Assembly: GCA_020852715.1 (NCBI GenBank)
Contig: JADZAE010000034.1
Location: forward strand, 57,786-121,785
From: Deltaproteobacteria bacterium
GTDB taxonomy: Bacteria > Bdellovibrionota_C > UBA2361 > SZUA-149 > JADZAE01
Reading direction: 5' to 3'
Length of the DNA: 64,000 nucleotides
Positions 1,590-63,248 of the stretch are shown in pieces. The translations under genes and the position numbers were made by a program. The notes beneath the pieces are model-generated. The model was not told the origin of the DNA, made no database searches, and saw only the letters and a list, made by a program, of their open reading frames with translations. The number at the start of each line of letters is the position of its first letter. The first letter of the stretch is position 1.

Positions 1590-1617
1590 GGGCAGGCGCA
1601 GCCTGCCCCTACTTTTT
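1590..1617 (+). terminator. intrinsic-terminator-like hairpin between convergent genes
   Basis: Stem gggcagg (1590-1596), loop cgcag, stem cctgccc (1602-1608), followed by ctacttttta. It abuts the stop codon of the minus-strand gene at 1609-1611. Confidence 0.45.
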
Positions 1618-31965: not shown

Positions 31966-32406
31966 ATGAAAGAGTTTAAACGTCCAGATTTAGCTTTTCG
32001 TTTTGCCGTACCATTTATTCGCTTTGGCGAATTCGATATGGCTGGAGTGCTTTACCATGGTAACTACTTTCATCTTTACGAAAATGTCCGTGAACTTCTA
32101 TTTCGTAACGCCAATCTTCCTTATGACCGCTATGCTTCTAATGACCAGCATATGGCAATCACTGAAACGCAACAGAATTTTATCGGGCCCTTATATTATG
32201 GCCAGTCCTACACCCTTTATTTATGGGCAGAAGTAATCAAGAAAACCAATGTTATCTTATGTTACGAAATTGAGGATTCTGAGCATAAGATAGTACACCG
32301 AGCTTATACAAAAATGGCCTTTGTGGCTAAGGAAAAGGATAGTTTCCGTGTTTCCTCAATGCCCGCAGAGCTTATTAGATTATTTCAATCAATTGAAAAC
32401 AAGTAG
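31966..32406 (+). CDS. hotdog-fold acyl-CoA thioesterase (YbgC/4HBT-like)
   Basis: 146 aa, with the MAGVLYHGNYFHLYE motif typical of the 4HBT class. Confidence 0.65.
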   Translation: MKEFKRPDLAFRFAVPFIRFGEFDMAGVLYHGNYFHLYENVRELLFRNANLPYDRYASNDQHMAITETQQNFIGPLYYGQSYTLYLWAEVIKKTNVILCYEIEDSEHKIVHRAYTKMAFVAKEKDSFRVSSMPAELIRLFQSIENK

Positions 32407-37740: not shown

Positions 37741-40302
37741 CTACTGATTGTCCTGAGGTAGGAACATGTCGTTCCAGCTGGTGGCAATAGTATCTGCCGA
37801 CTCAATTGCTGTGCTCCACAAAGCTTTTTGGCGTTCGATATCCATAACCCGCATATAATCAGCAGCTTCGCCAAGCGCCATTGCTGGGGTACCCGAAAGA
37901 GAAAAATAAGGGGCATTAAAAGCTCCGAAGCTTGTAGTCATCGCTCCAAAGCCCATATATTCAAATTCGGTTTTGGCTCTATCATAGACCCCCTGTAAAG
38001 CCATTCCTGATTGCATCAATTCTGCTTCATAATCCTGAGCCTTTTTTACAAATATGTTCCCCACGCCTACAGCCGTCTGGAACATTTTACCTACCTGAGT
38101 ATCGTCAGCTTTATTACTCTCGTACTCGGTTGGTAGTAACTTAGTCAAACTATCAATTGTTTTTGAATTTAAGCCACCTAATATACCTCTGCTTCGGGCA
38201 TTAGCTAAATATCTACCTGCTACACTTTTAGAATTAACATGCTCCACCGGATTAGTGCTATGATCAATCGGATTAACGCTTAATCCAGCCGGGATAGATT
38301 GAAAACCAATCGCTTCGGGATTTCTAACCGGAATTCTATCTTCCTGCTTAAAATAATTCATGGGAGCGAGATTGGCACCCTTACCGTATAAATCATTATG
38401 CAATGCTCCATAGGCTCTTTGTCCTTGATCCAAAATAAAGCTAGAGCGTAAATAGGCGGCAGCTTGGTTCACATCACTTACTGCCGGAGTAGAATAGTCA
38501 CCGGCAAAGCTTTTCATGCTAGCCGTTACATAGCCGTGGCTAGCACCAAGACCGCCTAATAATAACAAGGCTGTTATAATGGGTATTGATTGTAGTGCTA
38601 CTGCAATCATTTGATAATAAGTTGAAATATTAAATGTAGGATCAAGTTCTCTGATAGCATATAAAGCTGTTGCTAAATCAGCGCTAAGCATTGCTGCGGG
38701 AGTATTAACATCAGGCGACTTGCCAACTGAGATCATGTTAAATAAAAAGGAATCGATCAGCATAACTACCGAAAAGCCGACATCCCAGCTTTTTACCCAA
38801 AGCCATAACATAAACCAATAAATAAAAAATCCTTGCTTACCCGGCCAGAGTAAAACCAGAGCAAAAAAAGGATAACAAATAGCCAAGAAATATAAGAGTA
38901 TGCCTTGATAGTAAGGTAGTTGTTGCGCATGAGTTATCAGCACTGAACGATAGCGCCATTCATTCATTTTCTGCCGCTGTTTTTCTATTCCGGCCATAGT
39001 CATTGTATCAGCAGGCATGGCAATAGTTCCAGCCATACCTTCCACATCACTAAGACTTCCAATAAAAACAGAGTTATTATGCGCCTCAGCTGCTGTGTTG
39101 GACATTATATATTTGGCTACTACGCCATAAAGTAATTTGGGATTTTTTATTGTCTCCGAATCATCCAGATTCAAGCGAAACGCATCCGCTTTGCCATCGT
39201 TATAATTTGCACCCAATATTTGATATAAAGATTTAACCACATCTTTTTCGGCCACCCCCATGCCTCGACCTCTCTTTTTGGCGTTCTCGACAGCTTTTTT
39301 TGCCGATCTATACAAGCCTCCATAAGTAAAATTCCAAATATCTTTACAGGTGAAAGGTGGATCAACATTCTTAAGTTCTTCTTTCACCAATTCATACTCG
39401 GCTATCTTGGGATCGGCTTGTTTGTAATCTCCGCTTACTACACCCCCATTGGCACCATCCTTATCCGAGAGTTTATCTAACCACCTCGTTACCTTGTCTG
39501 TACCTTCATCCTCATTGGGAATTTGATCTAAGTTGATAAATTCTTCATTCCATTCTCCGGGAAAATCAACCTTCATTCGCGCTACATAATCCAAAGCATT
39601 TTCGCTTAAGCGCACGGGGTGAGTTTTTAAATATTCCTCATATTCTTTAATTTTCTCCTCACGCTCTTTTGCATTATATCTTAAAGTCAGATCTGTGCCA
39701 TAGCCGATACTTGCTAAAGTATAGGCTTCGCGGCATTCATTTAGAAATCCTAATTGTACTAGCTCGCGCAAGCCATCATCTTGAATGCGATAGCCTTGGG
39801 TATCAACAATCAGTTCCAGTTGGTTCATGAACTTAAGATCGATATTTTTCTTTTCAGCAATCATCACCCTAACCATCTCTTGAACAGTGTTGCTGATAAA
39901 ATTATTATAATAAGAAAATAACCAAGACACCTCGGCCTTAGTATCTTGGCCGGCCAGCTTTTCGTCCTTCATGGCCTCAAGCACAGCAGTATCTACTGAT
40001 TTCGATGAGCGCACCTGATTAGCAAAACGCCACTCGGCTGATTCGACTTTAGCTAAATTAAAAACACAAAACGCATATAACCCCGGACCAATCACAAACC
40101 AATAGAGATGCTTAAATGATCCGGTAACCACAAGTCGGACCAAGGCAATAATAGCAATTACACTAAAGATAAGCGCAGGAACGGTAGATTTAAGAGGCGT
40201 AGCTAACTGCTCAAGTAGATGGGCTTGATAATAGTAACCCACTGACTCCATCACAGAGCTGACAAATGATCCACCGGAGGCTACTGAGCTAAAATCTGCC
40301 AT
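37741..40302 (-). CDS. TraG N-terminal-domain (VirB6-like) family polytopic membrane protein, paralog 5 of 5
   Basis: 853 aa. The N-terminal pair of transmembrane helices follows a short conserved head (SFVSSVMESVGYYYQAHLL). The periplasmic loop carries two conserved Cys (FLNECREAYTL, PPFTCKDIWNF). The conserved block is QLPYYQGILLYFLAICYPFFALVLLWPGKQGFFIYWFMLWLWVKSWDVGFSVVML, followed by ELDPTFNISTYYQMIAVALQSIPIITALLL. Confidence 0.6.
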   Translation of the reverse strand: MADFSSVASGGSFVSSVMESVGYYYQAHLLEQLATPLKSTVPALIFSVIAIIALVRLVVTGSFKHLYWFVIGPGLYAFCVFNLAKVESAEWRFANQVRSSKSVDTAVLEAMKDEKLAGQDTKAEVSWLFSYYNNFISNTVQEMVRVMIAEKKNIDLKFMNQLELIVDTQGYRIQDDGLRELVQLGFLNECREAYTLASIGYGTDLTLRYNAKEREEKIKEYEEYLKTHPVRLSENALDYVARMKVDFPGEWNEEFINLDQIPNEDEGTDKVTRWLDKLSDKDGANGGVVSGDYKQADPKIAEYELVKEELKNVDPPFTCKDIWNFTYGGLYRSAKKAVENAKKRGRGMGVAEKDVVKSLYQILGANYNDGKADAFRLNLDDSETIKNPKLLYGVVAKYIMSNTAAEAHNNSVFIGSLSDVEGMAGTIAMPADTMTMAGIEKQRQKMNEWRYRSVLITHAQQLPYYQGILLYFLAICYPFFALVLLWPGKQGFFIYWFMLWLWVKSWDVGFSVVMLIDSFLFNMISVGKSPDVNTPAAMLSADLATALYAIRELDPTFNISTYYQMIAVALQSIPIITALLLLGGLGASHGYVTASMKSFAGDYSTPAVSDVNQAAAYLRSSFILDQGQRAYGALHNDLYGKGANLAPMNYFKQEDRIPVRNPEAIGFQSIPAGLSVNPIDHSTNPVEHVNSKSVAGRYLANARSRGILGGLNSKTIDSLTKLLPTEYESNKADDTQVGKMFQTAVGVGNIFVKKAQDYEAELMQSGMALQGVYDRAKTEFEYMGFGAMTTSFGAFNAPYFSLSGTPAMALGEAADYMRVMDIERQKALWSTAIESADTIATSWNDMFLPQDNQ

Positions 40303-40307
40303 AGTTT

Positions 40308-42653
40308 TTAATATCCTCTTCCCCGAGAACGTCCCATTTCTCCCTCGGTAGGTATTTCAGCAGTCGAAGGACCCTGCATCGGCAACTTTTCACTCGGTTC
40401 AGCTAGTTGAGCACCTAGCGCCGGAATTACCGTAATAATGCTATCCTGGACCTTTTCAGCATAATTAAAATCTGTTTGTGCTTTTAATGGCGCAATAAAT
40501 TTCTCATGATCAATAGCGGCCACCAAGTCATGACTATTCCAGCCTAGCATATTCATATCTTGAGCAAGTTGTATATTTCTAAGACTATTAGCTTCATTAA
40601 GCATAGCAAAATGAAGATTCTTCTCCACTTCGGCACCCACGAGCTCTTTTTTCTGGGCAGCCTCAGCTGCCGTCAGGCCACTGAAGATAGAATTCATTTC
40701 CTTAGTATAGGCATTAGCAATTTCGCCGAGAGCTACAGAATCTACCGCTTTGTCCGACGCTGCCTTCATATATTGAGAAGACAAACTTAGCAGCTTTTCT
40801 CCGCCAATAGCTTTAGCGACATTTGGTTGGAGATAGGCATTATAGAAATTGTTTTCGGTGGCCTGCCATATTCTTTTTTCGAATAGTGCTTTATTCTCCT
40901 GTAATTTTGTACTTGTCATATAGCGACCAATAGTAGTGCCAACATTGCCGGCAAAATTTGAAACGCCATTACTTACCGCATCTAATATTTCAGAACCTCC
41001 TTTTTTCACGATCAGCGCCATAATAGCCGGCATAGTAACAATACAAGCCGCGATTAAATTATAATATGTTGCGACCGAATAGGAAGGATCAACTTCCATT
41101 GCTCTTTTCAGAGCTTCGGCCGGTCCTTGCTGAACGTTCAGCAATTCAGTGGTCATGGGAGCTCCATGCGGCATGAACGCATATAAAATATCATCTATCA
41201 TCATCACAAAGGCCATACCCAAATCCCAAGATTTAACCCAAAACCACAGACTCATCCAAGAAAACACTACGTGGTGTCGTCCTGGAACCAAAAACATAAA
41301 AGCGACAAAAGGAAAAGCAGCAGCAAGGAAATAAAGCAATAATCCTTGTATATAAGGAAGGGTTTGGGCAACGGCAAGAAAGTCCCCCTTTCTATACCAA
41401 TGATCAAATGATCCAAACAACCTCATTGACCTGGCAATATCAGGATTATTGTATTTACTAGCCTCGGGCACACGCGATCCACTAGCGCCCTCTGTCCTTG
41501 TTACATCCTTAGACTCCAGAGCTGTCGGTATATAATTCATTTGCACTATCGTCGGATTTACCTGGCCTAGTTCTTTTACGAACATATTCATGGCGACTTC
41601 ATTAAGTAGGGCTTGCAATTTTTGATCATTACTCAATCCTTGAGTTTTTATTTTGTCATCATCGGTGCGCACTTCCATATCAAACTTCATCAATAACCTT
41701 TCCCGTGCTTTTTTGCGCATGTCTTTAGCAGCTTCGCTAGAATCATTGGCATTATCCATGCTTAATACAGCATCAAGAGTTTCCGTGGCATGTGCCTGCA
41801 AAATGGCAAAGCTAAGTTTCCAAGTGTCTAAGCAAGTAAGCGGGGAATCTTTCTTGATAGAACCATCGGTTTCTACCTTATCACCTAGAGTTTTAGCGGC
41901 AATGTCAGAAATTCCGTCTGTCTTTAGCCATTTAAGCAGTGGGGCGCGTGAGTCATCAGCTGTTAAAGCAACAAGGTTTCCGGCTTTCTTCATTTTTTCT
42001 TCTATTTCTGCGCGCTCAGGATTAGTAACACCTAAGTTATTTAAAGTACGAGCCAAAGTATAATAGGAGCTACAGTTATTTATTGTAGCTAAATTGACTA
42101 GTTGTTTTAGATTTTCGTCGGTAATCGTTGCTTTAAAAAGACCTTCGTATTTTTTTACTTGATTTAAAAAATGCACATCACCATCTTTTTTTACCACCCC
42201 TAAAGCATCAATCGTGGCTTGGATGACTCCGCTAGTAAATCTATTCCATTCAGCAAACATCGTCGATACTTTCATTGATGTCGCAGCTTGAGAGCCTTGA
42301 CTGTCACTATTATAAGTTACTCCTTTGGTATATTTTTCTACATAGGCGCTATCTCTCTTTTTACTACCAAACTGCCAAGCTGCTCCTGTCGAATCTTCAG
42401 TATTAAGAATAGCAACGTAAAATAAGGCGGGACCAATTAAAAACCAACGAAAGAATTTATAATCGCCACCCATGGCATAAGTGACAAAGGCAATTAAAGC
42501 CGAGAGGAGATAACAGAGAGCACCGAGTGAATAAGCTAAGCCATCAGTATCTAAATGTTTTAAGATTTCGGATTGCAAATATTGGCCGCTTGTTTCCAAA
42601 GTAGCAGCAATTATGTTGCTTACGCTACCAATTTGTGAAGTATCAAGCGACAT
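40308..42653 (-). CDS. TraG N-terminal-domain (VirB6-like) family polytopic membrane protein, paralog 4 of 5
   Basis: 781 aa. Motifs TINNCSSYYTL, SPLTCLDTWKL, TLPYIQGLLLYFLAAAFPFVAFMFLVPGRHHVVFSWMSLWFWVKSWDLGMAFVMM, EVDPSYSVATYYNLIAACIVTMPAIMALIV. The C-terminal tail is divergent. Confidence 0.6.
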   Translation of the reverse strand: MSLDTSQIGSVSNIIAATLETSGQYLQSEILKHLDTDGLAYSLGALCYLLSALIAFVTYAMGGDYKFFRWFLIGPALFYVAILNTEDSTGAAWQFGSKKRDSAYVEKYTKGVTYNSDSQGSQAATSMKVSTMFAEWNRFTSGVIQATIDALGVVKKDGDVHFLNQVKKYEGLFKATITDENLKQLVNLATINNCSSYYTLARTLNNLGVTNPERAEIEEKMKKAGNLVALTADDSRAPLLKWLKTDGISDIAAKTLGDKVETDGSIKKDSPLTCLDTWKLSFAILQAHATETLDAVLSMDNANDSSEAAKDMRKKARERLLMKFDMEVRTDDDKIKTQGLSNDQKLQALLNEVAMNMFVKELGQVNPTIVQMNYIPTALESKDVTRTEGASGSRVPEASKYNNPDIARSMRLFGSFDHWYRKGDFLAVAQTLPYIQGLLLYFLAAAFPFVAFMFLVPGRHHVVFSWMSLWFWVKSWDLGMAFVMMIDDILYAFMPHGAPMTTELLNVQQGPAEALKRAMEVDPSYSVATYYNLIAACIVTMPAIMALIVKKGGSEILDAVSNGVSNFAGNVGTTIGRYMTSTKLQENKALFEKRIWQATENNFYNAYLQPNVAKAIGGEKLLSLSSQYMKAASDKAVDSVALGEIANAYTKEMNSIFSGLTAAEAAQKKELVGAEVEKNLHFAMLNEANSLRNIQLAQDMNMLGWNSHDLVAAIDHEKFIAPLKAQTDFNYAEKVQDSIITVIPALGAQLAEPSEKLPMQGPSTAEIPTEGEMGRSRGRGY

Positions 42654-42665
42654 TTTCCCTCCTAA

Positions 42666-44732
42666 TTAGTTACCATCTAAATCTATCTCATTAGAGGACT
42701 TTGGCGGCGTTGGGTCTTCATCACTTTGAACTCCCGGTCGTGAGTTTCCAGCGCCAAGCATTTTATTATACTCAAATATATTACGCGCCTGAATATCTTG
42801 ATTTCCCTTTAGGCGTTCTGCTGCAGTCAGCGAGGAAAAGTTTGCATCGGTACCCGCGGCGCCGCGTGGCTCCATTCCTGATCTAAGAAGAGCAGTTTTT
42901 CCTAAATCAGTTTCACGTCCTGGCTGAGTATTATAACTCCTAGCTTGCGATAGCTGCGCTTGTCTATTCATTTCATTTCGATGAGTTCTATCGCCAGCTA
43001 AAGCTATGGGAACACCGCTATCAGTATAGCCGGGGTTATTAGCTGCTTTCTCCGCACCACCCACATTATATAGCGCGCTATTTACTCCAATCATTAACGC
43101 TTGATCAGATGCATATTGACGTCTTGCCGATTGCAAAAATCTTTTCTCAAAACTTCCTAACGGTTTCATGGCCTTAGAAACAAAACCTTTAACATGACCC
43201 GCCCCTAAACATAAATTTGCAGTCAAAATAGGTATAGATAAAGTAATCAGAGAAATGATTGTACTATAAGTATTTGGCGTAGCTATAGGATCATTAACCG
43301 AGATGAACGAATAAATTGAATCTATATTTTCCCAATTAATTGTTCCGGCTACATGGTTTATGTCACGCGAGGTAAACTGCCAGAGAAAGTCTTTAAAAAA
43401 GACGACTATGGCAAAACCAACGTCCCAACTTTTCGCCCAAAGCCAAATAAACATCCAATTAAAAAACACTGTCGCGCGACCAGGCATTAACAAAAACAAT
43501 GCAAAAAATGGGAAAAGCGTAGTCATAACCATAAGAATTAATCCCTGGATATAAGGAATAAGGCCGGCAAAATACACCATTTTAGAAATCATTGTTGAGC
43601 TATTGGCCGCAGCAACTTGCGTGTAGACTGAAGATACGTGCTCGCCGGAAATAGCGTTTTGCTCATATATCTGATTAATCAACAAAGAGTGAGCATTTTT
43701 TTGCATAGTGTTTCTTAAAAGAAAAGCCGCTATTACATCAACGGCTCTCTCTGAGGAATTCCCATTTTGTCCGTTCTGCCCGGCAATAGTCTTTTCTACT
43801 TCAGCCCAAACCTCTTTCCATGGAATATCTGACTCGCCCATTCCATCAGCACCTGCCGTGCGCTCTTGTTGTTTATTCTTTAATATTATGGCCTCGTCAT
43901 GACATGCTTTTTTAATTACTTCATATAAGCGCTGACAACTAATGCTCTTAGTCTCTTCCTCAGGGCTTATTAGACCACCATCTAGTGCTTTAAGATAATC
44001 TATTACTCCATGATCGAGATTAATGAATGTATTTTCCCTTCGTATCCTGGCCTTAGTTTTTAGATCTTCCTTTTGCGTGACATTAGTAATGCGTGCCGCT
44101 TCATTGGCATAACTGGACGGATCAGCACACTTACCCATAAGGCCAAAGGACAATAAGCGCATAAAATGCGGGTTTTTATTTTCATAATTAAGCAAATAAT
44201 TAAACAATCGCTCTCTGCCGGCAATTATCATATCCTCTCTATTTTCAGTATCCAGCAATACGCCGACAAGAGACTGCACTAAGCTGCTAATAAATTGATC
44301 ATAGTAAACATAAAAACGAGAGACTTTCTTTTCTTGATTATCGTTTGAACTGCTACCATCTTCTTTTTTATACAGCATGTTATAAAACGTTTCTTGCCCC
44401 TCGACAGAATTAGCGACGACACGGTTTCCGAACTTCACTGTGGTCGCATCCACCGGAATTGTGTCTTTTAAAAAGAAAAAGAATAGCGCCGGGGAAATCA
44501 CCAAATATAAAGCTTTTTTATAATTACCAAACACACCATAAGAAATTAAGGCTCCGACTAAAGAAACCAAATAAATTAAAGCTCCGATAGAAGTAATCAT
44601 CTCGCTCATATTAGATAGCACAGAAGCCTGACCATCAAGCCCTGTGCTTTGCAGCAAAGCAGAGACAAAGTGACCTACAGATCCTATCTCTGCACTACTG
44701 ATCGACTCTCCTATTTCGCCAATTTCTGCCAT
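42666..44732 (-). CDS. TraG N-terminal-domain (VirB6-like) family polytopic membrane protein, paralog 3 of 5
   Basis: 688 aa. Motifs LMGKCADPSSYA, KSISCQRLYEV, LIPYIQGLILMVMTTLFPFFALFLLMPGRATVFFNWMFIWLWAKSWDVGFAIVVF, NDPIATPNTYSTIISLITLSIPILTANLCL. Confidence 0.6.
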   Translation of the reverse strand: MAEIGEIGESISSAEIGSVGHFVSALLQSTGLDGQASVLSNMSEMITSIGALIYLVSLVGALISYGVFGNYKKALYLVISPALFFFFLKDTIPVDATTVKFGNRVVANSVEGQETFYNMLYKKEDGSSSNDNQEKKVSRFYVYYDQFISSLVQSLVGVLLDTENREDMIIAGRERLFNYLLNYENKNPHFMRLLSFGLMGKCADPSSYANEAARITNVTQKEDLKTKARIRRENTFINLDHGVIDYLKALDGGLISPEEETKSISCQRLYEVIKKACHDEAIILKNKQQERTAGADGMGESDIPWKEVWAEVEKTIAGQNGQNGNSSERAVDVIAAFLLRNTMQKNAHSLLINQIYEQNAISGEHVSSVYTQVAAANSSTMISKMVYFAGLIPYIQGLILMVMTTLFPFFALFLLMPGRATVFFNWMFIWLWAKSWDVGFAIVVFFKDFLWQFTSRDINHVAGTINWENIDSIYSFISVNDPIATPNTYSTIISLITLSIPILTANLCLGAGHVKGFVSKAMKPLGSFEKRFLQSARRQYASDQALMIGVNSALYNVGGAEKAANNPGYTDSGVPIALAGDRTHRNEMNRQAQLSQARSYNTQPGRETDLGKTALLRSGMEPRGAAGTDANFSSLTAAERLKGNQDIQARNIFEYNKMLGAGNSRPGVQSDEDPTPPKSSNEIDLDGN

Positions 44733-44747
44733 AGTTATGATAAAATT

Positions 44748-47255
44748 TTATTTAATAAATCCTACCGCCGATTCTACATTTGTCGTCCACTTCCTTTGCT
44801 CAGTAGTCGCCTCGCTCCTTACCTTTGTCATCATTGGAGTCATTAGATCTCCGGGACTAAACTCTACTAAGCCAAATGGCTCACCGCGTCCATTGGACAT
44901 AGCGCGCAGTTGTTCAAACTGTCTAACTCCGACATTATTAGAGTAATACTCACCAAGCATCATACCGGCTTGCCTCTGTCTTTGCTGAGCTTCCAAGGCT
45001 GTAGCATCTCTGGCACTGTCTTGAGTGGCTCTATTTTGGGCAAGCGTTGCATTTGCCCCACCCCAAGCGGAAATTGGATTAATCATTGCACCCCCGGCCG
45101 TAGCCACCATACCCAACCCACGCTGAAAGGCCGATTCTTCCTCAGTGCTTTTAAAGTTTGCTCGCGCTTCTGTCATTTTCTCATTCATATCTTTCATGAA
45201 AGGAATATTGCTTTGAAAAGAATTAACATCGTTAGCATACATACTTTGAATAGTGCGTGCTTCAAAATTACGTCGCATGTTATTATACTGCGAGGAAAGG
45301 CGGGCTGATTCTGTCGTTCCTACCGCTCCGGCCATAGTAGAACCAACGCTTTTAAAATTATCAACAAATGCCGATAACCCTGCTGCTTTAGCCCCAATAA
45401 TCAGTCGCGCCATGATTACAGGAACTGAGGTCACTAAAAGCGCAATCAAGGTGTAATAATTGGCCATATTATAACCAGGATCACCAAAGAATGCTTGCTC
45501 CATTATGGTAATAGGAGTTTGTGCGTAGCTACTCGTGGGATCGTAAAAACCACTATGTGGCATTAGTTGCCATAAAATATTGTCTAGAATCATGACCAAT
45601 GACCAACCAAAATCCCAGCTTTTTAGCCATGCCCATAGAGCACACCAAGAGAAAAATACATTGGCTTTTCCCGGTAATACAACAGCCAGACAAACAAATG
45701 GAAAAGCTAAAGCTAAAGTGTAAAGCAAAACACCTTGCACATAAGGTATCATCATGGCAAAAATAAAAAGTTCATGTTTTTTTCGATTAGCAATAATATG
45801 GTTGATAATCTGATTACCAAACTGCCACATTTCTTTTTCCGAATAAGCAGTGGCTCCGGTTGGATCAAAAACAGAAGAGGTAGGAATTACGCCGGAGTGC
45901 TCGGCAAATGAAGTTATTACTTTTCCATGCGTTCCATCAGCTTGAGCTTTCCTCAGCATATATCCACCGATGATAACAGGGATCAATGAGATTTTAGGAT
46001 CAGATTTTTTATTATCTATTACTATTTCCTCAGCTGGATACTCAAAAGACGAGCCTCCTTCAGGATCGTATTGATAGTTAGGCCGGCTTTGCAATTTGAT
46101 AGCTATATCATCCATGATCGCCTTTAGAAAATCGCCCTTTGAAGTATCATTGTTTTTAGCTACTTTATCTTTAACGGCTTTTTGTAAATACTCCGCTCCT
46201 TCTTTGTATAAACCTAGCCCCATCAGCACCCAAAGCTGATTACAACTGGCTTTGTTGTGCATAAAGGTAAGCTCTTTCTCTACTTTTAAGGCTTCATAGT
46301 CTTCGGCGAATGTGTTTCTAACATCCCTATCCATGACCCCAAACCCCCCATTAGAACCCTCGGCTGAATTCCCAAGATTTAATCCAGCTAAAGGATCAGT
46401 AAACACGCCATTTGCTTGTGCGTCTTGAATTTGATTGATGTAGCGGGTGAGAGGACCGGTGCGTAACGGTTTGGTTTCAGCATTGCCATCATAAAGCTTG
46501 GCGTAATCAGCAGCAGCTCTTCTATATTCGGGTGAATTTTTATATTCTGGATCTTTTTCTCCCAAAGCTAAGATCCTTGCCGCTTCTAATTCATCAGCAC
46601 ATACGGCCAAGGTATACTGAGTAAAAGTATTTAAATCAGGAGAGCCAATGCGCGCAGTGATAATATCTTCGTATAGCTGCTGGCGAATAGTAAATTTCAT
46701 TTTATTCATCAAAGCTTTGTCTGAAATAACAGTAATCATCTGTTGCACTGTTTCGGAAACAAATTTGTTGTATTGATGAAAGAACCAAGAGACTTTTGGC
46801 GCTTTCTCATCGGCTTTGAGCCAGCGCACTTGCTCATTTTGCGGATCTAGAGCAGCCTCTTTAATTAGAGCTGAGGCAGCAGCCGTCTTTTCAGCATATT
46901 GCCATTCGACACCTTGCCCGGAGTCCGTAGTTCGTATTAAAAAAAACAATAACCCCGGGCCAATAAAAAACCATAATGCCGTACCGTAGCTTCCCGAAAT
47001 GACAAAAGTGATCATTGCAGCTAAAGCCGCACCGATAAAGAACAATGCCCCTAAACCAGTAAGCATTTTTGCTAAGTCTTCTAACACAATTGATTGTGCT
47101 TTATAGCCGGCTGATTCTAAACCAGCGGCAGCTAAAGTACCTGTGCTGGCGTATTCTGTGCTGTTGTTGCTAGACTGAGCATAAACAGACAGAGGCGATA
47201 AAACTATCATTAGGCATAAGATTATCAATATGTATTTATGCCATCTCATAATCAT
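44748..47255 (-). CDS. TraG N-terminal-domain (VirB6-like) family polytopic membrane protein, paralog 2 of 5 (the only one with a cleavable-looking signal peptide)
   Basis: 835 aa. It has an extra N-terminal MIMRWHKYILIILCLMIVLSPLSVYAQS. Motifs TLAVCADELEAA, NKASCNQLWVL, MIPYVQGVLLYTLALAFPFVCLAVVLPGKANVFFSWCALWAWLKSWDFGWSLVMI, GDPGYNMANYYTLIALLVTSVPVIMARLII. There is a 4-nt ATGA overlap with paralog 1. Confidence 0.6.
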   Translation of the reverse strand: MIMRWHKYILIILCLMIVLSPLSVYAQSSNNSTEYASTGTLAAAGLESAGYKAQSIVLEDLAKMLTGLGALFFIGAALAAMITFVISGSYGTALWFFIGPGLLFFLIRTTDSGQGVEWQYAEKTAAASALIKEAALDPQNEQVRWLKADEKAPKVSWFFHQYNKFVSETVQQMITVISDKALMNKMKFTIRQQLYEDIITARIGSPDLNTFTQYTLAVCADELEAARILALGEKDPEYKNSPEYRRAAADYAKLYDGNAETKPLRTGPLTRYINQIQDAQANGVFTDPLAGLNLGNSAEGSNGGFGVMDRDVRNTFAEDYEALKVEKELTFMHNKASCNQLWVLMGLGLYKEGAEYLQKAVKDKVAKNNDTSKGDFLKAIMDDIAIKLQSRPNYQYDPEGGSSFEYPAEEIVIDNKKSDPKISLIPVIIGGYMLRKAQADGTHGKVITSFAEHSGVIPTSSVFDPTGATAYSEKEMWQFGNQIINHIIANRKKHELFIFAMMIPYVQGVLLYTLALAFPFVCLAVVLPGKANVFFSWCALWAWLKSWDFGWSLVMILDNILWQLMPHSGFYDPTSSYAQTPITIMEQAFFGDPGYNMANYYTLIALLVTSVPVIMARLIIGAKAAGLSAFVDNFKSVGSTMAGAVGTTESARLSSQYNNMRRNFEARTIQSMYANDVNSFQSNIPFMKDMNEKMTEARANFKSTEEESAFQRGLGMVATAGGAMINPISAWGGANATLAQNRATQDSARDATALEAQQRQRQAGMMLGEYYSNNVGVRQFEQLRAMSNGRGEPFGLVEFSPGDLMTPMMTKVRSEATTEQRKWTTNVESAVGFIK

Positions 47256-50200
47256 TTCTCCTCTCCCGAACCATTTCCCCAGTGAAAATCATTAGAGCTA
47301 GCAGGAGCAGGTTGAAGATGAGCAGGCTGTTCATCATTTAAATTATCAATTACATACGGCATCGTGCGATCAGCAATCTTTTTAGTATCCGGATAGGTAA
47401 CACCAAGTTCATGATATTGACCCTGATAACCCAGAGCGTCTAGTGTTGCGGCTCCATAGCCATAAGGGAAATGTAAGATATTTAACGACTCATTTTCGAT
47501 GGCTGCTCTTCTTTGTTCTTCTGTTACAGGCATTAACCAGTCCATGGCATTACCGGTAAAATTCAAATATTGTTCGCCAATCGCTTGATCATCAGCTTCG
47601 CCCCAATAACCCATACCTGTGGTAGCGGCGAAACCGCCACCTTGACCAAAAAACCCGCTTCCTGGTTTAAATCCGGCGATAAATTTTGGGTTAAAAACAC
47701 TACTAAAAGCATTACCTACAACAGCATTCACTACATCAAACTTCGCCTTAAATAAATTTTTTGAGGTTTCGACTGTTGCTCCATACGCATGGTCTATAAC
47801 CTGCATTTCAAAACCACTTTCTGAATCACCTAAGGCGTTCGATCGGGATTCCATTGCAATACCTCTATCGCTAAAGCGGCCATAATCGGGATTCCAGACT
47901 CTATTGTATCCTATTCCTGCTGTAATTTCAGCGTCACGCACTTTTGTATAATTACTAAAAGCTTCTTTAGCTATGCCGGTGACAGAGGATTTGATCTGTG
48001 GAAGTGATATAGGCGCAGCATTGACACCGCCGGTTTTAACGATATCGCTGGCATTATTAGTAACAACTGTGGCGGCTCCTAACATGCCGGCATTGGCCCA
48101 TCCGGTAAGGTTATTGAGATAAGTTCTACCATATTCACCTGTAGTCATAGGAGCATAAGCTAACGCACCCATCGCCTGGTTCGCACCGGCCTGAGTATTA
48201 GCAAAATCTGTAGCATACCCACTCCCACGAATAGAACCTGAAGCGGAGGCAGATGAGGCCATCTGATCAGAAAATATCGCCAAAGCGCTACGTTTCCCTT
48301 TAAGAATAAGTAAACCCGTAATTGCCGGGATAGCAAAAATCCCCATTGAGATCATCATGTAATAACTATGTAAGTTATAGGTGGGATCTACACGCATTGC
48401 TTCTTGAAGAATGGTTTCAAACTCCATCGACTGAAAGCTCATATCTTTAATCCGAACCCCAATATCGGTCTTAGGGAAAATATTCCAAATAATTCTATCC
48501 GTGACCATAATAATGGCCATACCGATGTCCCAACTTTTCACCCATAGCCAGGTTAAGAAATATGTAAGCATTGATTGAGCACGATTAGGAACCAAGACGA
48601 TCAACGCTACAAAAGGATAGGCGGCTGCGAGCAAATAAAGAATCAGTCCCTGCCAATATGGAAGCTGCAGAGCATAAGCATAAATACTTTGTCTTAGGGT
48701 CCTGGTATGATAGCGCTGCTGTTCCACATAAGCCATATCCAATGGCCCACCAATCTTACCTATTGTTGTATAAACCGAAGTTCTAGTCTGATTTGTCTTC
48801 TTATGTTTAAATACCCCTAAGCCCATGGTATCCTGCGATACATTGCCGGAAGTATAAACGAACAAGGCATCAAAAAATTTTCTTGTTTCTACATTAGTAG
48901 AATCTTGAACGAATTCCCAATTCTGTGAATCTTCTAAGGCCGCAATTTTCTTCCCGGGGATATCACCGAGAAAATTCATTTGGTTTTTCTTGATATTAAT
49001 TGCGTGTGAGCGTTCAGATCCAGCGATTCCATTTCGCAACATGTAAATCAGAGACACTCGCACTAAGTCACAATCCCCGACTAATGACTCAGCGGCTACA
49101 TTTCCTGTGTAGTTTTCTTTCTGCAGCACTTCCAAAACAGACCAACACAATTCGTTTTGTAACCGTTCTCTGTCTTCTTCTGCTACTTCTCCCTTCGGGA
49201 CATGCTTTTCCTTGAGCTCGTTACTTAACCAGTCGGCTTCTTTAACCATGGCGTGCTTAAGTATTTCCCACATTGCGCCACAGGGGATAGCAGTTGATTT
49301 CCAGTTGTTTCCCTGAGCATAACTTATTAAATCTTGCACCCCCGGATATTGCTTATACTTCTCAATATAATCATCTAAACGGCCGGCTAAGCCATTCTCT
49401 ATACTCTGACCCAGATTTGCTTTTACGTAATTTGCAGTATCCGCAGTGGGCGTCATGTATTTTTTAAACCTAGCTGTTTCTAGATCTTGTTCGCTGATAA
49501 TTTTTGCCGCATCGAGATAGTTAGTGTAATCACTTAATCCCTCAGCATTCGAACCGTCTTCCTGAATATGCTCTTTAAACTTGTCTATTCGGGTTTGACT
49601 TAGTTTTTTGGAATCAAATACCGTTGCTCCGGTTAAAGACGAGCAGCGGTCAAATAAATCTGACGTTAACATTTTAGTAACTTCGGGCAGATTAGGATTA
49701 GCGTTTAATACTCCTTCCAGCATTTTAGCTTTATTTAAAGACATCAACGCTTTGTCATCTTTATGGGAAATAATAAGGCTAACAAACTGTGCTACCAGTT
49801 GGTCGATCAGCTTGATCATTTGCGCAAAAACGCTAGACACCCTAATGTTGTCGCTGTCGGATATTGATCCCTCGCCTTTACGCACCGCATTGAGATTTTT
49901 GTTAGAATCCTTGTAAGTCACAACATTGACGGCTAAGGCGGCCGGGTCTGTATTTTCTTTCTCATAGACTTTAGTTAAAGAGCGCGGATAGCCCGTTGCA
50001 CCGAGGCGCCAAATTGAACCGCTTAAATCTTCACGTGGAGTAATCAATAGATAATAAATAAAAGGCATGATGAATAAATAGCGGAAAAGCTTAAAGCTAC
50101 CAAAAACTACCATTGAAATCATGGCACCCAGTGCAGCAAATAAGAAGAGTAAGGCGCCTGTCGAATTAAAAAAGTTCTCGAAGGCGTCCAAAAACTGCGC

Positions 50201-50275
50201 CTGAGTGATGTAACCGGCAGTCTCTAATGCTGCCGTCACAAATGATGCTGCTGAAGTTACATCAGCCATGATCAA
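47252..50275 (-). CDS. TraG N-terminal-domain (VirB6-like) family polytopic membrane protein, paralog 1 of 5 (the largest)
   Basis: 1007 aa. Motifs LFDRCSSLTGAT, TAIPCGAMWEI, QLPYWQGLILYLLAAAYPFVALIVLVPNRAQSMLTYFLTWLWVKSWDIGMAIIMV, RVDPTYNLHSYYMMISMGIFAIPAITGLLIL. It has a unique C-terminal soluble region of about 330 aa. Confidence 0.6.
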   Translation of the reverse strand: MIMADVTSAASFVTAALETAGYITQAQFLDAFENFFNSTGALLFLFAALGAMISMVVFGSFKLFRYLFIMPFIYYLLITPREDLSGSIWRLGATGYPRSLTKVYEKENTDPAALAVNVVTYKDSNKNLNAVRKGEGSISDSDNIRVSSVFAQMIKLIDQLVAQFVSLIISHKDDKALMSLNKAKMLEGVLNANPNLPEVTKMLTSDLFDRCSSLTGATVFDSKKLSQTRIDKFKEHIQEDGSNAEGLSDYTNYLDAAKIISEQDLETARFKKYMTPTADTANYVKANLGQSIENGLAGRLDDYIEKYKQYPGVQDLISYAQGNNWKSTAIPCGAMWEILKHAMVKEADWLSNELKEKHVPKGEVAEEDRERLQNELCWSVLEVLQKENYTGNVAAESLVGDCDLVRVSLIYMLRNGIAGSERSHAINIKKNQMNFLGDIPGKKIAALEDSQNWEFVQDSTNVETRKFFDALFVYTSGNVSQDTMGLGVFKHKKTNQTRTSVYTTIGKIGGPLDMAYVEQQRYHTRTLRQSIYAYALQLPYWQGLILYLLAAAYPFVALIVLVPNRAQSMLTYFLTWLWVKSWDIGMAIIMVTDRIIWNIFPKTDIGVRIKDMSFQSMEFETILQEAMRVDPTYNLHSYYMMISMGIFAIPAITGLLILKGKRSALAIFSDQMASSASASGSIRGSGYATDFANTQAGANQAMGALAYAPMTTGEYGRTYLNNLTGWANAGMLGAATVVTNNASDIVKTGGVNAAPISLPQIKSSVTGIAKEAFSNYTKVRDAEITAGIGYNRVWNPDYGRFSDRGIAMESRSNALGDSESGFEMQVIDHAYGATVETSKNLFKAKFDVVNAVVGNAFSSVFNPKFIAGFKPGSGFFGQGGGFAATTGMGYWGEADDQAIGEQYLNFTGNAMDWLMPVTEEQRRAAIENESLNILHFPYGYGAATLDALGYQGQYHELGVTYPDTKKIADRTMPYVIDNLNDEQPAHLQPAPASSNDFHWGNGSGEEK

Positions 50276-50287
50276 CCTTCATCGAGC

Positions 50288-52135
50288 TCAGTTATTATTC
50301 ATTGGATTCATACCTTCCGCCACACCGCCTAAAGTGCTTTGCGCCTGTTCACGACCATTCTGCGCAGTGAAAGCATTATTAGCATTTTGACTTTCCATCA
50401 CACGAGCATCTCTGGTTGCCGCCAACTGCAGTTGCTCTTCCACTAAATACTGCGCAGCAATTTCAGCATCAGCCTGCCGAAACTTGCGTTCAAAGCGAGC
50501 AATCATGTTGCGCATTTCCGCTTTCTGCTGCTCATCCATTACTCGATTCAGCATCAAATGATCCTCAATAATGGCTTTTGTGTTTTCATGTATTTTCTTT
50601 AACGCAGCAACTGCCGAAGCATCGCAAAAAGAGTTGACAAATTTAAGCATCTGACCGGTTGGTTTCCAATTCTGCGGAACAGGAGGCTTGACTGGCGAAA
50701 ACACAAACCAAGACTCAATATCAGCGGCCTTCAATATTTTACCCAATGAAGCATCCGGCCATAACTCTCTTAACTTCGCCATCTTGTCCTCAGTAGGGGG
50801 CCAATTTTTCAGTATGTCGATAACTGCCGGACAGATTCCGCCCCACCTAATTCGTCCATTTTCATCTCCCGGAGCGAAATTCTCTCCTCCGCCAGTTGGA
50901 GCATTTTTGCCGTCACGTAAAATAGCAATATACTGACTCACGGAAAGCAATGGCGGTATATACTTAAACTGCAAAGGCACAGGGCTTTGTTCGTCCGCTT
51001 GACCAGGCTCTCCATTTCCACTCGAACTCTCAATTATAAAAGCAATATCTCCGTATAATTCCTTCGCAACAAGTGCAGCATCTGGCACCAGTAATTCTTC
51101 TCCATTTGCTGCTTGGCCATTTATAGAATTAGCTTCTGGCTTGCTTGTTCCCATAAAAATGCGATCGACTAGGCTCCAGACGCCCTCTTTATTGACATCA
51201 AGAACACCGGTGTTCACCGACGTTAAAGTTTCTGCACAACATACACAAAATTCATATAATCCCTTAGTGCCCTTTTGATCATTATTTCCCGAAGCGGTTG
51301 GAAAGGTGCCGCATTTTTTCTTACAAATTGGATTAGTTTGCATTTCCTCTGCTTTAACCCGCTTCTTAAAATTTTCAAGTTCCTTAGACTGAGGTCCATA
51401 CGCTGCTTGACTCAGCATGCACGCTTCTACTTTTTCATCAACATCAGAAAAAAGTTGTTTTCTCTGCGGGTCAGTTAATTCTTTCGTTGCCCAATTTATC
51501 TGCTTTAGTAAGTGGATGCTGGTATTGTCATCGGCCTGCTGCTGTGTGGTCGCTAGAGCAGCCGCTACAGTTTTATCTGCAAAACTAAGAGTCAAAATGG
51601 TTGTGCCTCTTAGTGTTGTATATAGCTGGCGAAAATCCTGATCGCTGGTTACATTTTCGGTAAAATCTTTACGCATAGATCTAACTGACTGAAATACCGG
51701 CATTTGAGCCTTGCGCACTTCATCATCGACGCCTAGAGTTAGTGCTCCAAGACTAGTTGGCGATTTCTCCCAATTTGTTTCCTGCCCACCACTTCTTAAC
51801 TCCGGATATTGGTTATTAGCAGCAACATTACTTTTTTTAAGCAGCAAAGTAGATCCTAAATAACCATCATAAGCTGAGGCCCAACCATCAAAGGTCAGGA
51901 TGGGGTCATTTACCTCCTTACCTTCTATTTTAATATCATCAGTAACAAAATCGTAATGAGTACTAAATGGGTCGGCGCCTTCAGTAGTCTTCGTTACTTT
52001 AGTAAATTGGCCCGTTCTCATCTTATCTTCAATATTCGGTCGAGCTTCAGTTGTTTGTGAAAATGTGTCGCTAGTTAAAAAACTTGATCCGATGATGATT
52101 AGAAGGATTACTAAAGTTTTATTTATAGTTTTCAT
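50288..52135 (-). CDS. secreted Cys-rich protein with a C-terminal coiled coil. It occupies the TraH position (between the TraF-like and TraG-like genes), but homology to TraH is not established.
   Basis: Signal peptide MKTINKTLVILLIIIGSSFLTSDTFSQ. Cys cluster NPICKKKCGTFPT...YEFCVCCAETL. The C-terminus is a Q/E/R-rich coiled coil (QKAEMRNMIARFERKFRQADAEIAAQYLVEEQLQLAATRD). It is separated from its neighbours by 12-21 nt. Confidence 0.4.
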   Translation of the reverse strand: MKTINKTLVILLIIIGSSFLTSDTFSQTTEARPNIEDKMRTGQFTKVTKTTEGADPFSTHYDFVTDDIKIEGKEVNDPILTFDGWASAYDGYLGSTLLLKKSNVAANNQYPELRSGGQETNWEKSPTSLGALTLGVDDEVRKAQMPVFQSVRSMRKDFTENVTSDQDFRQLYTTLRGTTILTLSFADKTVAAALATTQQQADDNTSIHLLKQINWATKELTDPQRKQLFSDVDEKVEACMLSQAAYGPQSKELENFKKRVKAEEMQTNPICKKKCGTFPTASGNNDQKGTKGLYEFCVCCAETLTSVNTGVLDVNKEGVWSLVDRIFMGTSKPEANSINGQAANGEELLVPDAALVAKELYGDIAFIIESSSGNGEPGQADEQSPVPLQFKYIPPLLSVSQYIAILRDGKNAPTGGGENFAPGDENGRIRWGGICPAVIDILKNWPPTEDKMAKLRELWPDASLGKILKAADIESWFVFSPVKPPVPQNWKPTGQMLKFVNSFCDASAVAALKKIHENTKAIIEDHLMLNRVMDEQQKAEMRNMIARFERKFRQADAEIAAQYLVEEQLQLAATRDARVMESQNANNAFTAQNGREQAQSTLGGVAEGMNPMNNN

Positions 52136-52156: not shown

Positions 52157-53371
52157 CTAAAACTTTTCACTTAGCTTGTTCTCCGCAGAAGTTCGAGAAA
52201 CAACTCCGCTTACTGTTTTCAAACCACTTGTTTTGTTTTTGGAATCACTGATAATAAGCCGACCGGCAGCTAGCTTCTCTTGCTCTATTTTTCCAATCGG
52301 GGTTTCCATTAACTTGGCTATCTCCGGCGTAATTTGCGCTGGCAATCCCTGAACGGTGCGAGCAAATTCATAAAGACGAGCAAATTCTTGTTTGCCGGAT
52401 TTAATGTAGGCGGTTTTACTATTCGGGGCGACGATAACAACTGCAGGCACTAAACCAATATTAAATGATTTGGCAACTTGTGAACCTTCAAAAATGGGCA
52501 GAGTCATTCCAGTATAGTCACGATAAGACTGCACATGTGTTTTAGAAACGGGAACAAGCGACATTGCCGCCATTCTTAAATTTTTATCACCTTTGGTAAC
52601 TTGCCATAAGCGCTCAATATCGGCCGCCATCTCGCGACAGTATGTGCAAGATAAAGTAAAAAAGTAATAGATCTCTGCTTGGTTTTTCGTATCCGGAGTA
52701 ATGCGCTTCATCGCTTCTTCGTGCGTCGGCTTTAGAATAGACATATTGTCTTCACGACCTTCAGCAAACGCCATATCGGCATATTGTCCGACACCAACAA
52801 AATCATCTTCTTTTATTGCCCCCTTATTAATTAAAGCTTTGCCAATGAGATTGGTAATCTGCTTAACTTCAAACATTAGATTCATCATGTAATCAACAAA
52901 CGCTCCGGCATACTGTTCGGCGCCTCGCATGTCGCCCATGCGGTAGGAAATCATCATCTCTTTAAATTCATCGGGGGCATCAGCAGATATTCGGCCTAGG
53001 GCTTTATTTCGATTTTGTTGTTGCTTGGCTTGCTCCAAACGCTGAGAGTTTTCTTCTTGTCGTTTCCTTTCTTCTAGCGCATCGGCTTTCATTTGTTCTG
53101 CTTGATCAAGCGGGACCAGCATACCGTCAAAGACATTATCGTTGGTCAGCTTCTTTTTGAAAAAATCTGTCATGAAAGTATTTTTCGGTTTATAACCGGG
53201 AACACTTTGCGCATGACTCGAAGGCGCACCAAAGACGACAAGGCTTAGGCTAAACGCAAAGAGCATCAACAATGAACGCGCTGACTTTATATTCAGTATC
53301 GCCGGCATGAACTTATCCTTCGTATATATAGTCTCTGCTGCCACCACTTTCTTTGCCTTATCCTTCCGCAT
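52157..53371 (-). CDS. TraF-like periplasmic thioredoxin-fold protein with an intact CxxC motif (TraF/TrbB class of F-type T4SS)
   Basis: The probable start is the ATG at 53308 (MPAILNIKSARSLLMLFAFSLSLVVFGAPSSHAQ, with an aagga RBS 9 nt upstream). The layout is a coiled-coil Q-rich linker (QRLEQAKQQQNRNKALG) followed by a thioredoxin-like core, IYYFFTLSCTYCREMAADIERL ... GLVPAVVIVAPNSKTAYIKSGKQEFARLYEF. This parallels F TraF from memory (GIMFFYRG...YFPAMMLVDPKQGSVRPLSYGFISQDDL). Confidence 0.55.
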   Translation of the reverse strand: MRKDKAKKVVAAETIYTKDKFMPAILNIKSARSLLMLFAFSLSLVVFGAPSSHAQSVPGYKPKNTFMTDFFKKKLTNDNVFDGMLVPLDQAEQMKADALEERKRQEENSQRLEQAKQQQNRNKALGRISADAPDEFKEMMISYRMGDMRGAEQYAGAFVDYMMNLMFEVKQITNLIGKALINKGAIKEDDFVGVGQYADMAFAEGREDNMSILKPTHEEAMKRITPDTKNQAEIYYFFTLSCTYCREMAADIERLWQVTKGDKNLRMAAMSLVPVSKTHVQSYRDYTGMTLPIFEGSQVAKSFNIGLVPAVVIVAPNSKTAYIKSGKQEFARLYEFARTVQGLPAQITPEIAKLMETPIGKIEQEKLAAGRLIISDSKNKTSGLKTVSGVVSRTSAENKLSEKF

Positions 53372-60032: not shown

Positions 60033-60035
60033 ACC

Positions 60036-61144: not shown

Positions 61145-61264
61145 TCAACGCAAATATCACTAATTCGGATTTTCATGTTTGCGCGCAAAAAAATATTCTC
61201 TTGCATAGCGGCACGTTACCTGTTTTACTCACAAATATATAGTCACTAATTACTGAGGATTGAT

Positions 61265-61798: not shown

Positions 61799-61819
61799 AA
61801 TAAGGTCAATAAAGGTTTT

Positions 61820-62842: not shown

Positions 62843-62851
62843 AGAGGAATT

Positions 62852-63202: not shown

Positions 63203-63248
63203 GCGCAGACAAAATTTTTAGGTTTTATTTCAGGTTAGTATTAAGGCG

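Follow-up and report, generated by a model that had tools for sequence, protein, structure and literature searches.

The window analysed here is a stretch of 64,000 nucleotides from a Deltaproteobacteria bacterium assigned to Bdellovibrionota_C in GTDB (contig JADZAE010000034.1, positions 57,786 to 121,785), and it encodes five large membrane proteins, P1 to P5, in tandem. These proteins are almost certainly an ancient and fixed set of paralogs related to the Pfam family TraG_N (PF07916). We suggest that the five paralogs may co-assemble into a pseudo-fivefold platform of the VirB6 class in the inner membrane. VirB6, TrwI, TraG of the F plasmid, TrbL and DotA have been grouped into this one component class, which forms a pentamer in the stalk of type IV secretion systems (T4SSs; PMC12624023). 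Taken as a whole, we give the co-assembly proposal slightly less than an even chance.

Five paralogs with a common architecture

A first-pass annotation of the window described five back-to-back open reading frames (ORFs) on the minus strand at 37741-50275, and their positions and lengths were recovered as claimed:

47252-50275, minus strand: P1 (paralog 1), 1007 aa; TTG start; the database copy has 1005 aa
44748-47255, minus strand: P2 (paralog 2), 835 aa; start and P1 stop overlap by 4 nt
42666-44732, minus strand: P3 (paralog 3), 688 aa; the shortest paralog, with the best TraG_N match
40308-42653, minus strand: P4 (paralog 4), 781 aa
37741-40302, minus strand: P5 (paralog 5), 853 aa; last gene of the operon

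Together with two upstream genes, encoding a thioredoxin-like protein (Trx404) and a Cys-rich protein with a signal peptide (U615), the five genes form a tightly packed chromosomal seven-gene operon in an uncultured Bdellovibrionota lineage of the predatory type. The gaps through the seven genes measure 21, 12, -4, 15, 12 and 5 nt. This tight spacing indicates one transcription unit, probably with coupled translation. At either end of the operon, scans for promoters and terminators did not exceed what shuffled sequence would give.

The common architecture that had been read from the translations is borne out by a MAFFT alignment, in which identity to P1 is 21-23% and 39 columns are invariant across P1 to P5. 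The invariant columns cluster in the N-terminal head (G..xQ), in the VS helix, at two Cys in the long middle region and in the core, which reads LPYxQG...PF...P...WxWxKSWDxG...DP...Y...P. A hidden Markov model (HMM) of the family matches each of P1 to P5 with E-values of about 1e-180 to 1e-224, far beyond chance. P1 has the longest C-terminal tail among the paralogs and also the longest loop, which is predicted to be periplasmic. At the DNA level, the element common to all five genes is a single stretch of 38 nt that encodes WxWxKSWDxG, with 63-84% identity. Because shared DNA is limited to these 38 nt, P1 to P5 are neither recent duplicates nor an assembly artefact, and the DNA comparison of the five genes thus upholds the earlier statement that they are not near-identical copies.

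The array is conserved as five orthologous groups

Related loci were found by a scan seeded on the WxKSWDxG motif with one genome per GTDB species, which yielded 28 loci, and a metagenome scan added 14 loci. All relatives are metagenome-assembled genomes (MAGs) or metagenome contigs. The labels of most of the 28 loci name uncultured MAGs of Bdellovibrionales, Bdellovibrionota or Oligoflexia, and those of the others are less specific, for example Deltaproteobacteria or unclassified bacterium; given the motif seeding, the locus set makes no statement about absence from cultured Bdellovibrio-and-like organisms.

Every array-spanning locus (L002-L005, L009-L015, L018, L020, L021 and L036) carries five family members in a row, without a single paralog loss among them. 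In each of these loci the order is the thioredoxin-like gene, the gene for the Cys-rich secreted protein, and then P1 to P5. The best match of each locus member in the window is the paralog at the same position, by a large margin. In a neighbour-joining tree (638 columns, 13 genomes) each array position forms its own clade with a bootstrap support of 200/200, and identity amounts to 32-34% within an array position versus 21% between positions. Furthermore, each of the 159 retrieved database representatives scored best with a single clade profile, at least 153 bits ahead of the other four. Rather than an expansion specific to one lineage, the five paralogs are five separate orthologous groups. 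The view that the duplications are old and have been maintained, put forward from the window alone, is supported by these five orthologous clades and their fixed order across deeply diverged genomes.

Irregularities are confined to split ORFs in two MAG contigs (P1 in L007, P2 in L010), to an insertion of ~1 kb that separates P2 from P3 in a single subclade (L011-L015), and to the placement of the U615 gene after P1 in L029 and L039. The insertion between P2 and P3 carries a gene of 259 aa without a Pfam family (e.g., L001:4307-5086). The variant order (Trx)-P1-U615-P2 is found at L029:8888-14040 and L039:3-5955. One MAG, SRP302895_co1_434, is the source of three separate loci (L006, L017 and L029); either the system is present there in several copies or the MAG is a mixture of strains.

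Conservation differs by region. Among orthologs, identity is ~50% in the transmembrane (TM) core, 34-45% in the head and TM helices 1-2, 22-27% in the loop and 17-21% in the tail. This pattern bears on a different use of the array, in which the paralogs would form five separate homo-oligomers or be employed alternatively, as variants of a device whose periplasmic loops differ, for example with target or prey specificity or with conditions. In favour of such a use, loops and tails evolve fastest, relative to the core, and a model of homogeneous complexes has been left open for the VirB6 paralogs of Rickettsiales (PMC8035066). However, gains and losses in single lineages, as is usual for families driven by specificity, do not occur in the array; instead, orthology is strictly 1:1, the order is fixed and copy number does not vary in the array-spanning loci. 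Moreover, the overlapping or near-abutting genes of one operon suggest co-expression, and the signal peptide that is conserved on P2 alone suggests a distinct structural role for this paralog. We therefore regard separate homo-oligomers or alternative use as unlikely.

No prior description of the array was found in the literature on Bdellovibrio or Bdellovibrionota with TraG or T4SS, or on PF07916/TraG_N. In the database, the copies sampled are either unnamed or listed as "hypothetical protein [Deltaproteobacteria bacterium]".

A distant branch of TraG_N

P3 matches TraG_N with an E-value of 6.1e-13 and 49 bits, above the gathering score of 36.1, and its residues 260-523 align with positions 203-455 of the 462 positions of the profile. 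The match of P4 (E 2.3e-8, 33.9 bits) lies just under the gathering score; it joins residues 191-561 to profile positions 165-451 and spans both invariant loop Cys. P5 also remains under the gathering score (E 6.8e-7, 29 bits). Across the family, 16 of 21 members match TraG_N at E<=0.01 (best 2.3e-14), and none of the 21 matches any other Pfam membrane family. Neither a Pfam domain in the tails of P1 to P5 nor an NCBIfam match for the five proteins was found. Since P3 passes the Pfam threshold and the family HMM joins all five paralogs, P1 to P5 are, as judged from sequence, a distant and self-contained branch of TraG_N. This agrees with the TraG_N/VirB6-like character that the first-pass annotation had proposed.

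A profile search of 1.84 billion representatives returned 822 proteins at E<=1e-3, 690 of them at E<=1e-30. The family is thus compact and does not take in the mass of canonical TraG proteins. Its 822 representatives imply roughly 160 lineages. A tblastn search with P3 against 72,556 plasmids (PLSDB) gave no match, and a search of PDB sequences with the family profile produced noise only.

When the family profile is aligned with F TraG by hhalign, the core motif LPYxQG..FPF..WxWxKSWD falls on residues 324-379 of F TraG, though not at a significant level. Two of the F TraG strings that the first-pass annotation had quoted in support of this kinship are indeed present, LPMVQTILTGIAIGIFPLL at residue 325 and ALMWLQTWPLLYAIL at residue 363; the third reads FITCKDA (206-212) and not FLTCKDA. 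The only Cys of F TraG are residues 164 and 210 in its loop, and the P family has two invariant loop Cys. With full-length F TraG as the query, including its C-terminal half, phmmer found no match in the window and the related loci.

A structural model of P3 was built with AlphaFold2 (AF2) on a shallow alignment of 21 sequences. It is all-helical and has a predicted local distance difference test score (pLDDT) of 69.9. The highest-probability Foldseek matches of this model in the PDB, though non-significant, are stalk chains of the R388 T4SS (probability 0.28-0.63, TM-score normalised to the target 0.32-0.37). The chains 7o3v_J, 7o3v_G, 8rt9_F, 8rtd_H, 8rtd_I and 8rtd_L were matched with E-values of 0.7-2.5, probabilities of 0.14-0.63 and TM-scores (target) of 0.29-0.37. 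The first three are TrwI/VirB6 by length and chain assignment, while 8rtd_H, 8rtd_I and 8rtd_L are R388 stalk chains whose subunit identity is not confirmed. The DotA-IcmX protochannel (PDB 9NGY) also appears among the matches, weakly (probability 0.13). The model of P3 is at most consistent with a VirB6-class fold.

Predicted membrane topology

Hydropathy of the P proteins indicates two N-terminal TM helices, a loop of 250-450 aa and three TM helices in the conserved core. With two TM helices ahead of the loop, head and loop must share one side of the membrane. The mean net charge in 65 sequences is -1.8 in the head, +0.9 in the turn between TM1 and TM2, +0.8 in the turn between TM3 and TM4 (PGRA), -3.6 in the segment between TM4 and TM5 and +1.3 in the 30 residues after TM5. 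According to the positive-inside rule, this charge bias predicts an N-out orientation with five TM helices and the C-terminus inside for all paralogs. The same arrangement, N-out with five TM helices, C-in and a large periplasmic loop, is the reported topology of VirB6 from Agrobacterium tumefaciens. The loop with its Cys pair is accordingly predicted to share the periplasm with the CxxC protein.

The signal peptide that had been noticed on P2 only is real in the sense that a signal-peptide-like N-terminal extension is kept in 12 of 14 P2 orthologs and at no other array position. The conclusion drawn from it, a different topology of P2, is probably wrong, because head and loop lie on the same side and N-out is predicted for all paralogs. 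Signal peptides on P2 and on a single-copy relative, the P protein of L042, agree with this common N-out topology.

Single-copy relatives

Some loci, from more distant lineages, contain one family member each, of 1068-1366 aa:

L030:3569-6775: single-copy locus in a Bdellovibrionales MAG
L042:5191-15168: single-copy locus on a 317-kb marine contig
L043:4965-12220: single-copy locus
L044, L045 and L046: further single-copy loci

The single-copy proteins keep all family invariants, including both Cys. They form a clade of their own (200/200), are 20-22% identical to each paralog clade and stand about equidistant from the five clade profiles. When the tree includes them as an outgroup, the support for P5 falls to 80/200 and the root among the six clades is unsettled. 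A metagenome scan with the outgroup protein of L030 found nothing.

In L042 and L043, the P gene (L042:8366-12466, L043:8588-12220) is preceded by a gene of ~370 aa and a gene of 690-830 aa. The first gene of L042 encodes a homolog of Trx404 (BLASTP 5e-17) without CxxC. The middle protein, which measures 520-830 aa over the single-copy modules, belongs to no known family, and those of L042 and L043 have no detectable relationship to U615. As single-copy lineages likewise have a thioredoxin-like gene, a gene for a large protein and a P gene, this unit is older than the quintuplication. In L042, the P gene is followed by a gene for a 900-aa protein with a C-terminal DnaJ domain.

The partner proteins Trx404 and U615

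The two genes upstream of the paralogs are:

52157-53371, minus strand: Trx404, thioredoxin-like protein; first gene of the operon
50288-52135, minus strand: U615, Cys-rich protein with a signal peptide and a long C-terminal helix or coiled coil

In Trx404, a hydrophobic segment at the N-terminus (signal peptide or anchor) is followed by a coiled-coil-like middle part and, at the C-terminus, by a thioredoxin-like domain with the motif CTYC (242-245). Its match to Pfam Thioredoxin_2 (E 1e-4) is below the cut-off, and its best NCBIfam match is the TraF-like TIGR02740 (E 2e-3; 17 bits versus a cut-off of 232). Orthologs lie directly upstream of the array in 14 loci, and 11 of 14 sequences (13 orthologs plus the window copy) retain CxxC. 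An identification as TrbB of F was discarded, as BLASTP aligns the neighbourhood of CxxC only (E 0.15). Trx404, thioredoxin-like and with CxxC, is accordingly treated as an analog of the thioredoxin-fold proteins TrbB and TraF. The thioredoxin-like genes of L025, L026, L029 and L042 have lost CxxC, which parallels the situation in F, where TraF lacks the motif and TrbB has it.

U615 lies between the thioredoxin-like gene and P1 in 18 loci. It contains 8 Cys, and C239, C275, C297, C299 and C300 (CxCC) are invariant in an alignment of 17 orthologs. These 17 orthologs match no Pfam or NCBIfam family. TraH, VirB5 and other known proteins were considered for U615 and rejected, as there is no family match and hhalign against F TraH gives a probability of 0.2%. 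An AF2 model of U615 from an alignment of 4 sequences was unusable (pLDDT 42).

Search for T4SS genes around the array

The window belongs to the chromosomal core and includes def, fmt, rpe, serA, trmD, tRNA-Phe, holA, sppA, rsmE, a gene of the DsbA family, a PIN-PhoH gene and a pfkB-family kinase gene. That the host is flagellated, as noted at first reading, is supported by genes for MotA, MotB, FliL, FliM and FliO at 59.2-63.7 kb. Pfam scans of the ORFs in the 64-kb window revealed no T4SS family and no integrase or relaxase family. Searches by phmmer with 17 Tra proteins of F and 10 Trw proteins of R388 (VirB2-B11, VirD4) in the window and 44 related loci gave nothing at E<0.01; this search covers the window and the loci only, and very divergent T4SS parts would be missed by it. 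Small ORFs upstream of the operon include no pilin-like candidate. The first-pass annotation had spoken of an expansion on an F-type (TraG_N) scaffold; an expansion within an F-type T4SS is unproven because neither the window nor the flanks of the 44 related loci contain T4SS genes.

The array could nevertheless be the VirB6-class part of a true T4SS or conjugation system whose other genes (VirB4/TraC, VirB9/10-like proteins, a coupling protein) are scattered in the genome, in which case its function would be classical pilus biogenesis or substrate transfer. The homology to TraG_N speaks for such a system, and the way in which the TraG relatives follow a thioredoxin-like and a Cys-rich periplasmic protein recalls the F order trbB/traF, traH, traG. 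Dispersed T4SS genes, the five rvhB6 genes among them, are known from Rickettsiales (PMC8035066). Against this stand a window filled with housekeeping and flagellar genes, the 27 F and R388 proteins that remain without a counterpart in the related loci, the missing pilin-like ORF at the start of the operon, and U615, which does not resemble TraH. Instead of T4SS genes, the array keeps stable synteny with genes for a tetratricopeptide repeat (TPR) protein and deacetylases. We consider a scattered T4SS rather unlikely, and it would be compatible with a hetero-oligomer of the five paralogs.

As a further explanation, the array could be what is left of an integrated conjugative element in decay, or else a duplication of recent date or an artefact of assembly, and would then serve no function today. 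Conjugative elements typically carry TraG_N proteins, and tRNA-Phe is located 8 kb from the array. Yet none of the seven ORFs is broken, and the same holds for dozens of genomes at deep divergence, in which orthologs are only ~33% identical while the cores are conserved. In GC content (0.40-0.43) the operon resembles its surroundings and the window at large. Identity among the paralogs is 21-23%, with no DNA repeat beyond the 38-nt motif, and there is neither a homolog of the F/R388 set of T4SS and relaxase proteins in window or loci, nor an integrase or relaxase family in the window, nor a plasmid match. Conservation, composition and the lack of DNA repeats rule out a remnant, recent duplication or artefact, to which we assign a vanishingly small probability.

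A candidate hetero-oligomeric platform

The co-assembly of P1 to P5 that we favour would work as follows. Each P protein would be inserted N-out with five TM helices and the C-terminus inside, which would place a short head, a helical loop of 250-450 aa with two invariant Cys and the DPxY segment in the periplasm, and the variable tail in the cytoplasm. The thioredoxin-like protein might form or isomerise disulfides of the loops and of U615. A corresponding role for Cys-rich periplasmic proteins of F is attributed to TrbB. P1 to P5 would co-assemble, most simply as 1:1:1:1:1, into a pseudo-fivefold inner-membrane ring of the VirB6 class, a counterpart of the pentamer that VirB6 (TrwI) or DotA forms where the T4SS stalk begins at its base. 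The helical loops, possibly with U615, would make a periplasmic projection, and the single-gene relatives would form the corresponding homo-oligomer. The platform could serve T4SS, pilus or channel parts encoded elsewhere, or a T4SS-independent envelope device, for instance one for cell-cell contact of a predator.

Because the family is single-copy in some lineages and present in exactly five copies with strict retention in another, a homo-oligomer may have been replaced by a hetero-oligomer in which every ring position has a paralog of its own. We think it somewhat more probable than not that one hetero-oligomer contains all five paralogs. A 1:1:1:1:1 pentamer in particular is a more tentative suggestion, somewhat less probable than not, and its sole support is the numerical match between five fixed paralogs and the reported pentamer (PMC12624023). 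In its most far-reaching form, the co-assembly proposal implies an obligate heteropentamer with one paralog per ring position, derived from the single-gene homopentamer of the sister lineages and working in a chromosomal envelope machine that is independent of T4SSs or radically reduced, plausibly for contact with or entry into other cells; this form is speculative and we hold it to be unlikely.

Several observations weigh against a VirB6-class platform of five different subunits. The agreement between five genes and a fivefold ring could be coincidental, and in Ehrlichia the number of virB6 paralogs is four (PMC8035066). Under strict criteria, no position turned out to be constant within each clade and different between clades, and a laxer search yielded no more than 4-8 diagnostic residues per clade. 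Neither P1 nor P2 matches TraG_N directly in Pfam (E<=0.1), and both are tied in via the family profile only. The kinship with VirB6 suggested in the first-pass annotation is indirect: TrbL/VirB6 (PF04610) is matched neither by P1 to P5 at E<=0.1 nor by the 21 family members at E<=0.01, and the likeness of the P3 model to the R388 VirB6 structure is sub-threshold, as Foldseek found nothing in the PDB at E<1e-3. The hhalign comparisons with single sequences are likewise insignificant, with probabilities of 2.5% for F TraG and 0.4% for R388 TrwI, although the region aligned was the expected one in both. The C-terminal domain of F TraG is reported to be periplasmic and thus differs from the predicted C-in tail of the P proteins. 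Finally, there is no VirB4-type or other T4SS gene near the array, which leaves a stalk base without its functional context.

The fivefold ring of the VirB6 class lies at the heart of the T4SS and is symmetry-mismatched with the sixfold ATPase complex. The array provides a second, independent case beside Rickettsiales, with exactly five paralogs frozen in order across a clade and with single-copy relatives for comparison, and it makes the question of hetero-ring versus alternative rings directly testable. If a hetero-ring exists, the fivefold symmetry would be broken, which would be useful for structural work. If the genomes lack VirB4, a TraG/VirB6 module would be able to leave the T4SS for another envelope device (exaptation). 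In addition, roughly 800 database proteins, unnamed or "hypothetical" where sampled, gain a family assignment and an operon context.

Neighbouring genes

Two genes that face the operon from the other strand recur in related loci:

33505-35127, plus strand: TPR-containing protein, 540 aa; weak TPR_19 match; convergent with the operon
32321-33508, plus strand: polysaccharide deacetylase, 395 aa; Pfam Polysacc_deac_1

Homologs of the TPR protein adjoin the array in 17 loci and lie upstream of the thioredoxin-like gene in L025 and L026; the protein is a syntenic neighbour with a possible accessory role. Deacetylase homologs adjoin the array in 15 loci, in one or two copies. A 4HBT thioesterase also stays beside the array together with the TPR protein and the deacetylases (32321-35127 in the window and equivalents, 15-17 loci). 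This lasting synteny of TPR, deacetylase and thioesterase genes hints at a functional link, such as cell-wall remodelling around an envelope machine.

Between the operon and these neighbours, the segment 36125-37504 (plus strand) contains short ORFs of 86, 42, 138 and 155 aa and has a raised GC content of 0.476 with positive GC skew. The ORFs match no Pfam family and none of the related loci has a conserved counterpart of the stretch, which might be the relic of a gene or an insertion specific to this lineage. Directly upstream of the operon and on the same strand, 53860-55329 encodes a fusion of a PIN domain and a PhoH-like ATPase (489 aa), which is not conserved at this place in other loci.

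Further observations concern the remainder of the window. The motor/switch cluster at 59232-63746 comprises motA, an ORF of 177 aa without a family, motB, fliL, fliM and fliO. An ORF of 454 aa at 16214-17578 joins TrmD to Methyltrn_RNA_4, a second RNA methyltransferase domain dependent on S-adenosylmethionine, a fusion that looks uncommon. A protein of 1391 aa (19278-23453) combines family-2 and family-1 glycosyltransferase domains, and an ORF of 1148 aa (1609-5055) matches no Pfam family.

Comparison with known systems

The P proteins share with F TraG their sole Pfam family, TraG_N, and the LP..Q / FP / W..W core. Both have two loop Cys and are polytopic, with a large loop between an N-terminal TM pair and a TM core according to prediction. 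Thioredoxin-fold partners are encoded nearby in F as well, TrbB with and TraF without CxxC. However, the kinship is very distant, and five copies are found here instead of one. The array resides in the chromosomal core and not on a plasmid or an integrated conjugative element, and no tra genes (TraC/VirB4, TraH, TraN, TraU, TraW) surround it. Moreover, the P proteins have no similarity to the C-terminal half of F TraG, which functions in mating-pair stabilisation; their own tails are variable and predicted to be cytoplasmic.

VirB6/TrwI of R388 (PDB 7O3V, 8RT9, 8RTD) is the pentameric stalk base of its T4SS and belongs to the same component class as F TraG (PMC12624023). The five paralogs match the number of subunits in this pentamer, whereas the P proteins are two to three times larger than TrwI, and partners of the VirB5, VirB3 or VirB4 type were not detected in the window and the 44 loci.

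DotA of the Legionella Dot/Icm system, listed in the VirB6 class (PMC12624023), forms a pentameric protochannel with IcmX (PDB 9NGY). Like the P proteins, DotA is large and polytopic, with a big periplasmic domain and a secreted periplasmic partner, for which U615 could be the analog. In contrast to the array, DotA is single-copy, and it is part of a system of ~27 genes; no sequence similarity between DotA and the P proteins was detected.

The closest precedent for the arrangement of the genes is found in Rickettsiales. Rickettsia has five tandem VirB6 paralogs, Ehrlichia and Anaplasma have four, and their mode of incorporation is unknown (PMC8035066). The rickettsial system has no VirB5 (PMC8035066), and no VirB5 counterpart is listed for F either (PMC12624023). 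RvhB6a-e resemble P1 to P5 in being tandem, ~80% diverged paralogs of the VirB6 class with large extensions that are conserved across a clade (PMC8035066). The parallel to the rvhB6 paralogs that the first-pass annotation drew is apt, since several diverged tandem paralogs are conserved across a clade in both cases. The systems differ in that Rvh proteins represent the TrbL/VirB6 family within a P-type T4SS that includes VirB3/4/8-11 and VirD4, the R388 homologs of which are absent from the window and the related loci. Here, by contrast, the scaffold is TraG_N-like, the host phylum is free-living and flagellated, dedicated partners (Trx404 and U615) accompany the paralogs, and single-copy sister modules exist. 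The array and RvhB6a-e are of independent origin and represent a convergent expansion.

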